A stretch of DNA of 64,000 nt from an uncultured Clostridia bacterium (GCA_947630725.1 CANRIS010000005.1:36887-100886), one strand, 5' to 3'; shown: positions 4,987 through 57,423, numbered from the stretch's first letter. Notes: a model not told the origin generated them from the letters alone. A program made the numbers and translations.

Positions 4987-5695
4987 GGGACTCATAAAGA
5001 AATTTGGAAAGCTTGAAGTTCTTAAGGGTATAAATCTTCAGGTGGAAGAAGGAGAGGTCGTTTGCCTTATAGGGCCTTCAGGCTCGGGAAAAAGCACTCT
5101 TCTGAGATGTATCAACTGTCTTGAATATCCTACCGAGGGCAGCATAACCGTTGACGGACAAAAACTCACAGACAAGAAAGTCAATATAAACAAAGCAAGA
5201 GAAGATATAGGAATGGTTTTTCAGCAGTTCAATCTGTTTCCTCATCTGTCGGTAATAAAAAACATAATGCTTGCTCCGGTTGACAGAAAGAAAATGACAA
5301 AGGAAGAGGCGGAAAGAAAGGGTATGGAGCTTCTGAGCCGTGTAGGATTGGCGGATAAGAGAGATCAATATCCTGCGCAGTTGTCGGGAGGACAGCAGCA
5401 GCGTGTAGCCATAGCGAGGGCGTTGTGTATGGGTCCCGATATAATGCTTTTTGATGAGCCTACCTCCGCTCTTGACCCAGAAATGGTCGGAGAGGTTCTG
5501 GACGTTATGAAGGAACTGGCAAGAGAGGGTATGACAATGGTGGTAGTCACTCACGAAATGGGCTTTGCCAGAGAAGTGGGAGACAGAGTGCTGTTTTTGG
5601 ACGGAGGCTATATAGTCGAGGAGGGGACTCCCGAACAGATTTTTTCAAATCCCCAAAACGAAAGAACAAAGGCATTTCTCGAAAAGGTACTTTAA
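4967..5695 (+). CDS. polar amino-acid ABC transporter ATP-binding protein (GlnQ-like)
   Basis: TTG start 7 nt after GAGGAGG. Walker [10 protein letters not shown], signature [15 protein letters not shown], Walker [13 protein letters not shown]-loop VTHEM. Overlaps the permease gene by 20 nt. Confidence 0.9.
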
Positions 5696-5704
5696 ACATA
5701 TCTT

Positions 5705-5873
5705 AAACATATGGGCGGCGTACTTTTTGTCCTACGGACAAAAAGTACGCCCCTGCCGCCTACGGCGGCAGGGGTAGCTCCGAGACGACTTTGTCGTCTC
5801 GGAGCGCCGCCCCCATACGGCTCCGCCTTTGCGACAGAAGTACCGAAGGTACTTCGGGAACAAAGGCGTGAGC
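5705..5873 (+). repeat. family-1 GC-rich multi-hairpin intergenic repeat, copy A
   Basis: Consecutive perfect hairpins at 5717-5751, 5752-5772 and 5777-5805, plus a closing stem CGCCTTTG/CAAAGGCG. Near-identical architecture at 24192-24334, 24559-24700 and 57251-57423. Confidence 0.85.
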
Positions 5874-11622: not shown

Positions 11623-12090
11623 TTAAGGTATTTTGCACACGTCTACCCATTTTATATATCCCGAATAGCTTTCAAGCTCTTTTATGCTAAGCTCTATGGC
11701 AGAATTTGAGCTGCCGCAGGCAGGAAAAACCGTATCGAACCTTTCAAGAGAGCGGTCGAGATATACCTCTGCGCTTTCGTTTACGGCAAAGGGGCATACT
11801 CCTCCGACAGCGTGACCCGTCAGAGCCTCGGCCTCGTCATATTTAAGCATTTTGGCCTTTGTGCCGAACTCCTCTTTATATTTATGGTTGTCTATTTTTG
11901 CGTCTCCTGCGGTCACCACGAGGATCACCCTGTCTCCTGCGTGAAAGGACAGCGTCTTTGCGATCCTTTCGCCGGGGCAGCCGAGAGCTTTTGCGGCAAG
12001 CTCTACCGTAGCGCTCGACACGTCAAATTCTCTTATTCTGTCCTCGATGCCCAAGCCTCTGAAATATTCTCTGACTTTTTCTATAGACAT
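11623..12090 (-). CDS. YbaK/EbsC-family aminoacyl-tRNA (Cys-tRNA-Pro type) deacylase
   Basis: About 155 aa. YbaK-domain pattern (KTLSFHAGDRVILVVTAGDAKIDNHK ... HAVGGVCPF). Confidence 0.7.
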   Translation of the reverse strand: MSIEKVREYFRGLGIEDRIREFDVSSATVELAAKALGCPGERIAKTLSFHAGDRVILVVTAGDAKIDNHKYKEEFGTKAKMLKYDEAEALTGHAVGGVCPFAVNESAEVYLDRSLERFDTVFPACGSSNSAIELSIKELESYSGYIKWVDVCKIP

Positions 12091-12426
12091 AAATTTATCC
12101 TCCGCAAATATTATGACCGACAGCCGTATTTTTGCCTGTGCAGACTCTGCCCTGTTGGGTACTTTTTGTGTACTGCTTTATACGGGACTTGTGCCCGCAG
12201 AGATATTTTGCGGCCAATCGGTTGTGAGGGCGCTGTGTGAGCGCAGTTATCCCCGATAAGGATTATACACCAAAAACAGCTTGTTTTCAAGCTTATTATA
12301 AAAATAATATAAAGAGCTTATTTATAGTTGATTTTAAGCCGTAAAAAAGAATAAGCATTATTTGTCGGAACAAGCACAAATTCTTTAAAAAATCATAGAT
12401 TATAGAATAAGGCTTTAAGGAAGTGT

Positions 12427-19568: not shown

Positions 19569-19806
19569 GGGACACCATCATCAAAATGCAGTCGCATTTT
19601 GATGAGTACCAAATGTGCGTGCCGGGCAAGCCGGCGACTTCATTTGGAGGTAGGAATATAAATTTAAATTTTTCAAAAACTACGTTTTTTCAAATTTAAA
19701 TTTATTCCTCGGACGGGCAGAGCTCGTCCTGCGGATTAAAGTCTGCGACGCTTCTTAGAAATTTAATTTTCGGACACCACCTGCGGATTAAAGTCTGTGA
19801 TGATGC
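19569..19806 (+). repeat. family-2 modular hairpin-mosaic intergenic repeat, copy 1
   Basis: Contains the modules CATCAAAATGC-n-GCATTTTGATG and CCAAATG..GCCGGGCAAGCCGGC..CATTTGG. Also contains an AT-rich long hairpin, GGACGGGCAGAGCTCGTCC, and two CTGCGGATTAAAGTCTG units. The same modules occur at 27692-27894 and 45006-45305. Confidence 0.85.
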
Positions 19807-19970
19807 ATACAATATATTTGTCGAATAACTTTTTTGATTATCAGTCAATTTACTTTTTTAACAGTATAAACAGGACAGCAGGACAATACATATGTACTGT
19901 CCTGCCGTTGGTTTTTATATTATATATTTTATATTTTGTGTGTTGTTATGTCTTGGCAGACGGAATTTTG

Positions 19971-22369: not shown

Positions 22370-22796
22370 TTATATCACCTCGCGAAAGTATTTTATAAGA
22401 GCGCAGTTTTTCTGCCGCCCAAATACAGTACGGTTTAAACAAAAAGGCATTTTTTAAGCCGTACCCTACATCCTTTTAATTATTTTAACACATCTTTTAG
22501 TAAATTACAACAATAAATGTAAAAAAATATAAAAATGTTTGTATATATTTGGTAAGAATATTTGTCCGAAAGCTGTTTACTATATAAAAATGCGGAAGAA
22601 AAATCACAAAAATCACAAATATTTTTATAGAAATCTTATACTTTTGATATTGACATATATCAGTATAATCGGTTAAAATTATAAAAAGTATATGTGCCGA
22701 TACGATTTATGGGACAAACAGCCTTTTTGCATATGAAACGGTAAGGTATTTCATATGACGGCATATAATATATTATATATATCAGGGTGGACAATT

Positions 22797-24158
22797 ATGA
22801 ATCTGAATGAACATAAAAATATACATTTTATAGGAATAGGCGGAATAAGTATGTCGGCTCTCGCCGAAATACTGAACTATGAGGGCTACAGAGTGACGGG
22901 CTCGGACTTTCAGGAGGGAGATATGACAAGGCATCTCCGTTCTGTCGGCATAGATGTAGCCATAGGCCACAGCAGCGAAAATATAAAAAAGGACTGTGAC
23001 CTTATAGTATATAATGCTGCCATAGCCGAGGACAACCCCGAAAGAGCCGAGGGAAGAAAAAGAGGCATAGAGGAGGTCGGCAGAGCCGAGCTTATAGGAT
23101 TTCTTATGAAGGAATACGACTGCCCCATATCGGTTGCAGGCACTCACGGAAAGACCACCACAAGCTCTATGATTTCGGAGGTGCTTATGGCGGCGGGAGT
23201 GGATCCGACTGTGAGCATAGGGGGGATATTGCCGTCAATACACAGCAATTATCGTCTGGGATCGAGAAAATATATAGTGCTTGAGACCTGTGAGTACAGA
23301 GACAGCTTTCTCAAATTCAATCCGTACTGCGCAGTTATACTCAATATAGACAGAGACCATACCGACTATTTCAAAACAATGGATCAGATGTATGAGTCTT
23401 TCAACAAATTCGTAAACAGGATAGGCGGTTTTTTGGTAATAAACAGGGATATTGACCGCTTTGACAAGGTAGTCGAAAATTTTAAGGGCAAGATAATAAC
23501 CTACGGAAAAGAAAACGCCATGTGGACTGCCGAAAATATTGTTATGGAAAAGGGCTACGGAAGATATGACGCTTGTTTCAACGGCAGGAAGGCGGCTTCG
23601 ATAGAGCTTTCGGTACCCGGTATGCACAATGTGTATAACAGCCTCGGAGCAGTTGCTCTTTGTTCGGAGCTGGGAGTGGTTTCGGAGGTTATTGAAAAGG
23701 GGCTTAAGCATTTTTCGGGAACAGGCAGACGCTTTGAGAAAAAGGGTGAGTATGAGGGAGTTCCCGTAGTGGACGACTATGCTCACCACCCGACCGAAAT
23801 AAAGGCTACACTCAACGCCGCAAGGGAAATGGGGTATAAAAGGATAGTTGCGGCTTTTCAGCCTCATACCTATACGAGGACGAGAGATCTTTTCGACAGG
23901 TTTGCTGACGCTCTTAAGCTTGCCGACAAAGTATATCTTCTGGATATATATGCAGCGAGGGAAAAGGATCCCGGCGATATTCACTCAAAGGATCTTGCGG
24001 ATGCTCTTTGCGCAGAGGGAAAGGATGCGGTTTATTCCGAAAGCTTTGACGCCTGCGTATCATCGCTTAAGTCGGAGCTGAGAGAGGGAGACATATTCCT
24101 CACAATAGGAGCGGGAACAGTATATAGGATAGGCGACAGCCTTGTGGGAAAAGAATAA
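22797..24158 (+). CDS. murC: UDP-N-acetylmuramate--L-alanine ligase
   Basis: IHFIGIGGISMSALAEIL Rossmann motif and GTHGKTTTSSM P-loop. Start taken at MNLNEHK (ATG 22797), after the GGTGG SD-like motif. Confidence 0.95.
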   Translation: MNLNEHKNIHFIGIGGISMSALAEILNYEGYRVTGSDFQEGDMTRHLRSVGIDVAIGHSSENIKKDCDLIVYNAAIAEDNPERAEGRKRGIEEVGRAELIGFLMKEYDCPISVAGTHGKTTTSSMISEVLMAAGVDPTVSIGGILPSIHSNYRLGSRKYIVLETCEYRDSFLKFNPYCAVILNIDRDHTDYFKTMDQMYESFNKFVNRIGGFLVINRDIDRFDKVVENFKGKIITYGKENAMWTAENIVMEKGYGRYDACFNGRKAASIELSVPGMHNVYNSLGAVALCSELGVVSEVIEKGLKHFSGTGRRFEKKGEYEGVPVVDDYAHHPTEIKATLNAAREMGYKRIVAAFQPHTYTRTRDLFDRFADALKLADKVYLLDIYAAREKDPGDIHSKDLADALCAEGKDAVYSESFDACVSSLKSELREGDIFLTIGAGTVYRIGDSLVGKE

Positions 24159-24191: not shown

Positions 24192-24334
24192 GCTCACACC
24201 TTTGCCACGGCAAAGGCGGAGCCGCAAAGGGGGCGGCGCTCTGAGCCGCGAAGCGGCTCAGAGCTGCCCCTGCTGCCGCAGGCAGCAGGGGCGTACTTTT
24301 GTCCTGTGGACAAAAGTACGCCGCCCGAATGTTG
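24192..24334 (-). repeat. family-1 multi-hairpin repeat, copy B
   Basis: Reverse complement of the copy A/D architecture. Shortened last hairpin (CCTTTGCC-ACG-GCAAAGG). Confidence 0.85.
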
Positions 24335-24413
24335 GATCTGTGGAGAAGTAAGGCTTTGACATAAAACCGCAGGACGCGCATGGCGGAGCGTGAAAATACT
24401 TGTTTATGACAAA

Positions 24414-24456
24414 GACACACCTTTAGCCGGAAAAAGAAAAAAGGCGTGTCCTTTTT
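24414..24456 (+). terminator. intrinsic terminator closing repeat unit B
   Basis: GACACACCTTT ... AAAGGCGTGTC stem (one mismatch) followed by CTTTTT. Confidence 0.55.
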
Positions 24457-24558
24457 ATATAGCAATAAGTTTCTTTCTTTTACATACAATGGGACGTTAC
24501 TTAGGGGACTTATGAAAAGTGCAGGGGCAAAGGAAATTTATAGTAAAGACAGGGGCTT

Positions 24559-24700
24559 GCTCACACCTTTGCCGTGGCAAAGGCGGAGCCGCAAGGGGGC
24601 GGCGCTCTGAGCCGCGAAGCGGCTCAGAGCTGCCCCTGCTGCCGCAGGCAGCAGGGGCGTACTTTTGTCCTGCGGACAAAAGTACGCCGCCCGAATGTTG
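24559..24700 (-). repeat. family-1 multi-hairpin repeat, copy C
   Basis: Near-identical to copy B. It is part of a second unit of about 270 bp (24552-24820). Confidence 0.85.
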
Positions 24701-24778
24701 GATCTGTGGAGAAGTAAGGTTTCAGCATAAAACCACAGGACGCGCATGGCGAAGCATGAATATATTTGTTTATGACAA

Positions 24779-24820
24779 AAACACACCTTGAACGGAAAAA
24801 AGAAAAAGGTGTGTTTTTTG
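24779..24820. terminator. bidirectional intrinsic terminator (repeat unit C / MATE gene)
   Basis: AAACACACCTT ... AAGGTGTGTTTTTT. A-run and T-run on either side. Lies 30 nt beyond the MATE stop. Confidence 0.6.
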
Positions 24821-24850
24821 TATATATATTTTAGGCTGTATGAGAGGCGG

Positions 24851-45005: not shown

Positions 45006-45305
45006 CAGCGTGTCGGGAAAAGCCGACACGCTGTCATCAAAATGCGGTCGCATTTTGATGAGGCCAAATGTGCGTGCCGGGCAAGCCGGCGACTTCATTT
45101 GGATAAAGGAATATAAATTTCAATTTGTTCCAAAAACTGCGTTTTTTCGCAAATTGAAATTTATTCCTCGGACGGGCAAAGCTCGTCCTGCGGATTAAAG
45201 TCTGCGACGCATCTCATCCTGCGGATTAAGGTCTGCGATGCATCTCATCCTGCGGATTAAAGTCTGCGATGCATCTTGTTTTGCGGATTAAAATCTGCGG
45301 CGAAT
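45006..45305 (+). repeat. family-2 modular hairpin-mosaic repeat, copy 3 (inside ABC operon 2)
   Basis: All modules are present in the same order as in copy 1. It ends in about 4 tandem 31-bp units. Confidence 0.85.
45187..45305 (+). repeat. 31-bp tandem repeat (about 3.8 units)
   Basis: CCTGCGGATTAAAGTCTGCGACGCATCTCAT at 45187, 45218 and 45249, with a degenerate unit at 45280. Confidence 0.9.
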
Positions 45306-45470
45306 ATTATATGATCCATATCCAAATTTCAAAAAAAGGACTTGGGAAATTCTCAGGTCCTTTCTTTAACTGAACAGATAGGTTTCATTATTCTCGGGCG
45401 GAGCAGGGATACCGTTGAACGATAATAACGACAAAAGAAAAACAGAAACAGAAGAACAGGAGGGCGTTTT

Positions 45471-50820: not shown

Positions 50821-50892
50821 AGCTGAAGAGCGGAATTGAACCGCCGACCTACGCACTACCAATGCGTTGCGCTACCCCTGTGCCACTTCAGC
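50821..50892 (-). tRNA. tRNA-Thr (anticodon GGU)
   Basis: The minus strand reads GCTGAAG-TG-GCAC..GCGC-A-ACGCA-TTGGTAG-TGCGT-AGGTC-GGCGG-TTCAATT-CCGCT-CTTCAGC-T. This gives a 7-bp acceptor stem and a 5-bp anticodon stem with a U33-GGU-A37 loop. The T-loop is TTCAATT, and CCA is not encoded. There is one A-C mismatch in the D stem. Confidence 0.85.
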
Positions 50893-57250: not shown

Positions 57251-57423
57251 CAACATACGGGCGGCGTACTTTTGTCCTGCGGACAAAAGTACGCCCCTGC
57301 CGCCGCAGGCGGCAGGGGCAGCTCCGAGCCGACCCTTTGGGTCGGCTCGGAGCGCCGCCCTCTTGCGGCTCCGCCTTTGCGTACGACAGTACCGAAGGTA
57401 CTGTCAGATGCAAAGGCGTGAGC
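57251..57423 (+). repeat. family-1 multi-hairpin repeat, copy D
   Basis: Starts 2 nt after the stop of the preceding gene. Same hairpin series as copy A. Confidence 0.85.

Follow-up and report, generated by a model that had tools for sequence, protein, structure and literature searches.

A putative family of dispersed GC-rich palindromic intergenic repeats in an uncultured Clostridia bacterium

A 64,000-nucleotide stretch of DNA from an uncultured Clostridia bacterium (hereafter, the window) contains four copies of a structured element, designated Family 1, which we interpret, with moderate confidence, as a lineage-restricted family of dispersed GC-rich palindromic repeats, similar to REP/BIME and BOX elements in how they work and not homologous to them. 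Structured repeats of the REP/BIME type are well known in Proteobacteria and in a few Firmicutes; to our knowledge, they have hardly been described in uncultured Clostridia of the gut or rumen type. Judged by sequence comparison, Family 1 is a previously undescribed repeat, with no sequence relative in the collections searched.

Copies, genomic setting and predicted fold

The positions and strands of the four copies proposed in a preliminary description of this DNA were all recovered, with A and D on the plus strand and B and C on the minus strand (Table 1). A covariance model built from these copies (R1) scored them at 163–187 bits on the 64-kb window and detected nothing further, and two subsequences of the element, of 18 and 15 nt, both matched exactly the four copies, with only about 0.03–0.09 chance matches expected. 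The elements have a G+C content of 60–67%, as compared with 40–49% for the window, which is ordinary core housekeeping chromosome of a spore-forming member of the Clostridia, with genes including murC, glgCD, prfA, holB, tmk, spoIVA and hydF, together with oxaloacetate decarboxylase genes and amino-acid ABC transporters. Genes of transposases, integrases, phages or plasmids were not found in the 64-kb window, and a RAYT or Y1 transposase was found neither among its 57 ORFs nor in the gene table of a related genome, L211 (see below). Copies A, B/C and D lie 18–33 kb apart in unrelated contexts, and the family is thus not the product of one local duplication, an origin that had been considered earlier. 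Likewise, the earlier proposal that the element does not act as a peptide agrees with our results, since Family 1 is intergenic and its frames are open in nearly all six cases only because it is GC-rich.

Copy A is located between a GlnQ-type ABC ATPase gene and an SLH-domain gene, starting 10 nt past the stop codon of the former and ending 53 nt 5' of the start of the latter; copy D follows the stop codon of a GHL10/SLH gene by 2 nt, with 56 nt between its end and the next gene. For these two copies, both neighbouring genes are co-directional with the element, the spacers would otherwise measure about 60 nt, and neither a promoter-like site nor a sense-strand terminator was predicted within them. 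The convergent genes murC (+) and MATE (−) flank copies B and C, which are in the orientation of MATE and antisense to murC, with copy B ending 34 nt past the murC stop codon and copy C located downstream of MATE. The sequence of copy D is identical in a contig from an ENA assembly (L124). As regards murC itself (ORF 22755–24158), the probable start of translation is 22797 (MNLNEHK...) instead of the first ATG (22755), and the product recorded as a called gene is the shorter one only.

The order of modules is the same in every copy, consisting of a 5' (C)AACAT, a closing stem with three hairpins, a linker of 7–8 nt, and a 3'-terminal hairpin. The 7-bp closing stem (GGGCGGC/GCCGCCC) encloses three perfect hairpins with 3-nt loops, making up a four-way junction, in which hairpin 1 has 12–13 bp, hairpin 2 has 12 bp and hairpin 3 has 12–15 bp. 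In the 3' hairpin, GCTC-CGCCTTTGC is paired with GCAAAGGYG-T-GAGC. The base of this hairpin (GCTCCGCC ... GGYG-T-GAGC) is conserved below a variable upper part, and only copies A and D have an additional hairpin nested in its loop (GTACC-GAA-GGTAC). The predicted folds contained all the hairpins of the preliminary description, although the insert that had been given as 3 nt in B and C is in fact a 4-nt centre.

Predicted fold energies of the four copies ranged from −105 to −136 kcal/mol, with z values of −10 to −17 against dinucleotide shuffles. Folding is just as good for the complementary strand, with z values of −10 to −17 on both strands, and whole-element folding energies did not consistently favour either of them. 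Mutually exclusive folds had been suggested through the pairing of CGGAGC with GCTCCG; this helix costs +27.5 kcal/mol and has an equilibrium probability of about zero, so that an RNA switch through CGGAGC/GCUCCG is ruled out on energy. The earlier statement that the hairpins are not simple terminators holds for the sense strand, but not entirely for the complementary strand, where the sequence TACTTTT(T)G after hairpin 2 passes a loose terminator scan.

Table 1 Positions of the Family 1 copies, of their parts and of other features in the window and in L211
Feature	Position	Strand	Remarks
Copy A	5705..5873	+	169 nt; covariance model, 186.7 bits
Copy B	24192..24334	−	143 nt; short form without nested hairpin; 162.6 bits
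5' flank of copy B	24335..24470	−	duplicated with B core
Copy C	24559..24700	−	142 nt; 167.4 bits
5' flank of copy C	24701..24835	−	83% identity to B flank
Terminator-like hairpin	24400-24450 and 24765-24815		GACACGCCTTT ... AAAGGTGTGTC; T runs on both strands; duplicated with B and C
Copy D	57251..57423	+	173 nt; 181.4 bits
Copy D, four-way junction domain	57259..57360	+	predicted fold and consensus structure
Copy D, closing stem	57259-57265 with 57354-57360	+	
Copy D, hairpin 1	57266-57292	+	
Copy D, hairpin 2	57293-57319	+	
Copy D, hairpin 3	57321-57353	+	
Copy D, 3' module	57368..57423	+	GCTCCGCCTTTGC ... GCAAAGGCG-T-GAGC
Copy D, nested hairpin	57385-57405	+	GACAGTACC-GAA-GGTACTGTC
Second repeat family, 19.7 kb	19578-19812		2 tandem units
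Second repeat family, 45.2 kb	45034-45312		4 tandem units
tRNA gene	50821-50892	−	ordinary; 58 bits
T-box leader upstream of leuA	L211 18945-19190	+	ordinary; 132 bits

Stem conservation and loop inversions

Each of the paired differences between copies listed in the preliminary description is present. Covariation was computed on an alignment (A2) in which 99.1% of the pair cells were standard pairs, as compared with 40–53% when the partners were slid, and in which the five long helices contained no broken pair. Double changes occurred in three aligned pairs (C-G to U-A twice, and C-G to A-U once), and paired indels were found as the extra T:A pair in hairpin 1 of copy A, at the tip of hairpin 3, and in the nested hairpin. 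The three pairs with double changes compare with 1.9 in shuffles, and 81 of 500 shuffles reached the observed value; covariation is thus genuine but thin, and its statistics are weak with three independent copies. The distribution of variable columns was clearer, with 10 of 110 paired columns being variable versus 21 of 32 unpaired columns (Fisher p 3e-10).

Three of the loops are exact reverse complements between copies: the loop of hairpin 1 is GCA in C and TGC in D, that of hairpin 2 is TGC in B/C and GCA in D, and at the centre of the 3' hairpin B has CGTG where C has CACG. Inversion of the spacer together with homogenisation of the arms is described as a signature of DNA-polymerase template switching between the arms of inverted repeats, a process reported in the same sources to create and maintain perfect hairpins and to generate apparent compensatory substitutions in one step (PMC8604942, PMC8794818). 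The preliminary description had concluded from the paired differences that selection acts on the fold. With three inverted loops and weak covariation, this step is unsafe when taken from the paired differences alone, because template switching yields compensatory changes in one mutational event; the constraint on the stems itself is nevertheless backed by the contrast between paired and unpaired columns and by the comparison of copies B and C. Stems are far less variable than loops, and the differences between the B and C cores are all at unpaired positions, indicating that the stems are constrained, or homogenised, in place.

Copies B and C are contained within one local duplication, in which around 130 nt of the 5' flank were duplicated along with the core (Table 1), and the window therefore holds three independent loci instead of four. 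The similarity between both units ends exactly at the 3' end of the element. Identity is 83% in the flank and 97% in the core, where all four differences occur at unpaired positions and none in stems (p 6e-5). That the core is better kept than the flank suggests a host-level function or local gene conversion, and not a purely selfish element. The duplicated flank starts with the terminator-like hairpin of Table 1, whose copy in the C unit is just past the MATE stop codon, and the approximately 90 nt that follow this hairpin are 83–86% conserved between the B and C units.

Stems that are fixed, loops and junctions that are free, triloops, and helices with perfect Watson-Crick pairing are typical of palindromic repeat DNA, and this conservation pattern is the opposite of that of riboswitch- or ribozyme-like RNAs. 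Together with the Rfam results (see below), it rules out a riboswitch, ribozyme or tRNA-like reading of the cloverleaf.

Relatives and distribution

A search of the whole window against Rfam 15 at the gathering threshold gave no match for Family 1 and identified only the tRNA gene, and a permissive E-value search with copy D, B/C and L211 returned only sub-threshold matches to generic hairpins of the miRNA type; in this check no family matched, in line with the earlier remark that the element was not recognised as a named one. One exact two-block signature, AAGTACGCCCCTGCN{35,65}AGCGCCGCCC, had 0 matches in 185,579 species-representative genomes. An exact 20-mer had three matches in JGI metagenomes, all of them by chance, a 14-mer had 120 chance matches in viral contigs, none of which was supported by blastn, and two specific scans of the viral contigs gave 0 matches. 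Likewise, blastn comparisons with plasmids, phages and E. coli genomes yielded nothing. These collections were scanned with exact signatures, so diverged relatives may exist elsewhere. Six-frame translations of the window copies, and of an L211 element (b3), had no match among 5.8 billion proteins; this route is blind to the copies, since b3 went unmatched despite carrying a called ORF of 63 aa. That gene call, in the public annotation of L211 (14504-14695), is a spurious ORF across a GC-rich repeat.

The nearest relatives in the genome collection were uncultured Lachnospiraceae/Clostridiales MAGs, with no more than 70% MurC identity, and R1 had no match over 1.33 Mb around murC in 80 Clostridia genomes. 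No elements were detected with R1 in the 8.5 kb adjoining the window or in 11.6 kb of a relative at 73% (L215, GCA_947627855.1), nor were any seen in about 50 kb from relatives at 68–70%. There are elements in L211, the other relative at 73%, and none in the L215 stretch or in the 68–70% relatives, indicating that their distribution is patchy.

The source organism was otherwise seen only in low-coverage ENA and Logan assemblies, and its contigs repeatedly end inside the element in independent assemblies (ENA ERZ27249xxx; Logan DRR855144/149). Palindromes alone can break short-read assemblies; an assembly artefact as the origin of the element is ruled out by its identical sequence in independent ENA and Logan assemblies. 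Empty sites were sought by exact-protein look-ups, and the element was at the same places in every strain, even in a strain with a 98%-identical MurC (L209). The 3' stem is preserved in the orthologous copy B of this strain by changes, G.U pairs among them, and with GCTCCGCC replaced by GCTCATGCC this copy loses the bulge and gains two wobbles. In the same strain (L209 1899-1922), a Logan contig ends in the Illumina adapter AGATCGGAAGAGCGTCGTGTAGGG right after a partial copy B.

L211 is a locus of MAG GCA_947632615.1, from the same study, with a MurC 73% identical to that of the window. Here, R1 produced a weak match at 12019-12138 (29 bits, E 3e-6), and the 13-mer CGGCTCCGCCTTT is common to the window copies and to L211:12100, at the homologous position. 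The 21 kb of L211 contain six GC-rich clusters of perfect hairpins, whose upstream hairpins, with perfect stems of 25 and 37 bp among them, are unrelated in sequence to Family 1. Most of these clusters end in a 3' module in which (G)G(C)TCCGCC is followed by a hairpin that may have any sequence and length, and then by GGYGG(G)GCA, and the part that they share with the window is the 3' module, as delimited in copy D; in one element, CCTCC ... GGAGG replaces CCGCC ... GGCGG. Paired changes in both hairpins separate b1, b2 and b3, which form one L211 subfamily. Additionally, the G.T wobbles of the 3' module are all on the strand carrying TCCGCC (copies B and C of the window; a2, b2 and b3 of L211; and copy B of L209). 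Family 1 belongs to a wider modular superfamily, of which the 3' module is the common denominator.

Three consecutive perfect GC-rich hairpins occur at L211 17677-17855, of which two have 25- and 37-bp stems with loops of 3–4 nt, and contigs of two other assemblies end inside these hairpins. In bacteria, perfect palindromes of this length are normally unstable. The exact 9-mer CTTAAACAT is found once in the window, at the 5' end of copy A (5691-5710), where it is preceded by a near-copy, TTTAAACAT, overlapping the glnQ stop codon, and once in L211 (3575-3583), 3 nt past the 3' end of b1; it may be a target or linker motif, on a post hoc observation.

The window also contains a second, unrelated composite intergenic repeat family, present at two sites (Table 1) and without matches in Rfam at the gathering threshold. 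Its elements comprise, in this order, a hairpin TCATCAAAATGC..GCATTTTGATGA, a hairpin CCAAATG..CATTTGG, a long AT-rich hairpin, and tandem 31-nt units (CCTGCGGATTAAAGTCTGCGAYGCATCTCAT).

Interpretation and comparison with known systems

As a family of dispersed palindromic repeats, the Family 1 elements would have multiplied as DNA, most likely mobilised in trans by an enzyme recognising the 3' hairpin folded in one strand, by analogy with the Y1/HUH transposases that recognise REP and IS200/IS605 hairpins. We infer mobility only from the dispersal of the elements, since neither an empty site, a target-site duplication, a terminal inverted repeat nor an associated transposase was found. Their perfect stems would be kept by replication template switching within each palindrome, combined with selection against mismatched arms. 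If co-transcribed, the element must, according to the predicted folds, form an extremely stable structure 3' of the upstream cistron. For copies A and D, just past stop codons, a structure of −116 to −136 kcal/mol would then be a barrier to 3'-to-5' exonucleases, or a processing boundary between cistrons, which would be a role neither of a terminator nor of a ligand- or catalysis-type RNA.

This possible role in RNA could also be the only one. Family 1 would then be a host-selected cis-acting RNA, acting as a 3'-UTR or intercistronic stabiliser or as a processing signal, which was copied a few times and is not mobile. The co-orientation of copies A and D with their genes, starting 10 and 2 nt past stop codons and ending 53–56 nt before the next start codon, fits this proposal, as do the stems of B and C, kept in situ while the flank decays, and the G.U pairs on the sense strand. 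We nonetheless consider it unlikely: copy B is antisense to its nearest gene, murC, and two to three of the six L211 elements are antisense to both flanking genes; the loops and junctions are unconstrained; and three unrelated loci in 64 kb, together with a diversified superfamily in a second genome, resemble proliferation.

Two further proposals place the function in single-stranded DNA. According to the first one, which is speculative and in our opinion quite unlikely, the elements belong to an undescribed ssDNA mobilisation system of Clostridia, in which the 3' hairpin module would be the recognition site and the upstream hairpins would be freely exchanged as cargo. The module would be made up of TCCGCC, then a variable stem, then either GGYGGGGCA or GGYGTGAGCA, and would contain a bulged base as well as wobbles on one strand. 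If true, this would represent a new superfamily of mobile elements with a logic like that of attC or IS200/IS605 and no known enzyme.

The second proposal, distinctly improbable, is that each copy is the folded ssDNA site of a still-active recombinase or transposase, with the 3' hairpin, including its conserved base and bulged T, serving for recognition and strand selection, in the manner of an integron attC site or of an IS200/IS605 end (a PATE-like element). Several features favour such a site: subterminal hairpins occur at asymmetric ends that have neither terminal inverted repeats nor a target-site duplication; the base of the 3' hairpin is conserved across two genomes and its upper stem freely variable; wobbles and bulge are confined to one strand; AACAT precedes all copies; and the single exact occurrences of CTTAAACAT in the window and in L211 each abut an element. 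The CTTAAACAT observation is, however, post hoc, the R boxes of attC are absent at the ends, and neither tnpA, tnpB, an integrase nor a RAYT gene was found in the 64-kb window or in the 21 kb of L211.

Termination is suggested by the location of every copy downstream of a gene, and hairpin clusters are reported to be able to induce intrinsic termination (PMC8355165). Family 1 elements could thus be clustered-hairpin terminators or insulators that stop or pause the polymerase without a canonical U-tract, and on the complementary strand hairpin 2 and TACTTTT(T)G face murC in copy B. We find this very improbable, since a U-tract is missing from the sense strand of copies A and D and the genes located about 55 nt downstream of them have ribosome-binding sites and no predicted promoter, so that termination would silence these genes. 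Besides, canonical terminators are found elsewhere in the window (36846, 45006), and one adjoins C and B. Finally, a family of free-standing genes for a structured small RNA, with a four-way junction and its own promoter, would agree with the very stable predicted structure and the conserved architecture, but is hardly credible with no promoter-like site upstream of any copy and no terminator after it, with A and D abutting stop codons, with no Rfam match, and with a combination of conserved stems, unconstrained loops and junctions, triloops and perfect Watson-Crick helices that is atypical of tertiary-structured RNAs.

Under the palindromic-repeat interpretation, Family 1 and the L211 clusters would indicate that some lineages of this kind are colonised by fast-evolving, modular, GC-rich palindromes, which break short-read assemblies at every copy and can pass for structured RNA genes. 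Their 'compensatory' substitutions could arise by template switching and not by selection, which calls for caution in covariation-based discovery of RNAs. A new mobilisation enzyme would be indicated should the 3' module turn out to act as a recognition site.

Among known systems, the REP/BIME elements of Proteobacteria are described as GC-rich extragenic palindromes, often located just downstream of genes and inside operons, and as composite mosaics with stems kept by paired changes and resembling the subterminal hairpins of IS200/IS605; the roles proposed for REP in these sources include mRNA stabilisation, termination and supercoiling (PMC3733652, PMC3333891, PMC2817692). Family 1 is similar in also consisting of GC-rich extragenic palindromes whose stems show paired changes. 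It differs from REP, a single imperfect palindrome of 20–40 bp, in having units of 143–173 nt with four to five perfect hairpins in fixed order and a four-way junction formed by a long-range closing stem. REPs alternate in orientation within BIMEs and carry a GTAG or CGTC tag at one end; in Family 1, GTAG occurs in copy A only (GGGGTAGC; GGGGCAGC in the others) and CGTC only inside hairpin 3 of A, indicating that there is no conserved tag. The copy number of REP/BIME is above 100 per genome; for Family 1, 4 copies were counted in 64 kb and none in the 8.5 kb adjoining it. Moreover, blastn revealed no sequence similarity of Family 1 to any E. coli genome.

The BOX elements of Streptococcus pneumoniae (boxA-boxB(n)-boxC) and the bcr1 elements of the Bacillus cereus group are intergenic repeats of Firmicutes, of around 100–250 nt, which are modular, with a variable number of internal modules, have very stable predicted structures, are co-transcribed with their neighbours, and whose function is debated. 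Both are richer in AT and have imperfect stems, and the ends of bcr1 are MITE-like, with TTTAT duplicated at the target. Compared with these general descriptions, Family 1 is GC-rich, with perfect stems and triloops and with no terminal inverted repeat or target duplication seen. As for MITE features, its ends, (C)AACAT and GTGAGC(A), are not inverted repeats, and there is no consistent direct repeat in the flanks of A, B, C and D that could be a target-site duplication: CAACA is on both sides in D only, and A has a one-sided duplication of TTAAACATAT.

A similar behaviour is described for the mitochondrial GC clusters, double-hairpin elements and repetitive hairpin-forming elements of fungi and sponges, which invade AT-richer intergenic regions, are modular and patchy among close relatives, and whose mechanism of spread is given as unknown in these accounts (PMC2800124, PMC4478555). 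They reside in organelle genomes and bear no sequence relationship to Family 1, so that the analogy is one of behaviour only.

The ends of IS200/IS605, their ORF-less derivatives (PATEs) and integron attC sites function through a hairpin folded in one DNA strand, with extrahelical bases marking the strand. Family 1 resembles them in its conserved hairpin foot, variable stem, asymmetric ends and lack of target duplication. Its copies also have subterminal hairpins and a constant AACAT 2 nt before the first stem, and neither tnpA nor tnpB was found in the DNA covered. Unlike them, it has a five-hairpin architecture and no transposase or integrase gene nearby. The attC R boxes (RYYYAAC/GTTRRRY) are absent, as the 3' end is GTGAGCA in the window or GGGGCA in L211, and not GTTRRRY, and RYYYAAC fits B/C only (ATCCAAC).

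Intrinsic and hairpin-cluster terminators are likewise GC-rich hairpins located downstream of stop codons. In the test for intrinsic terminators, none was found on the sense strand of A and D, and the complementary strand gave a weak match to hairpin 2 followed by TACTTTT. Unlike terminators, Family 1 lacks a sense-strand U-tract, has a conserved sequence across unrelated genes, and precedes genes without predicted promoters of their own. Family 1 therefore departs from REP, MITEs, terminators, attC sites and the families of Rfam, and is best described as a structured palindromic intergenic repeat outside any named family.
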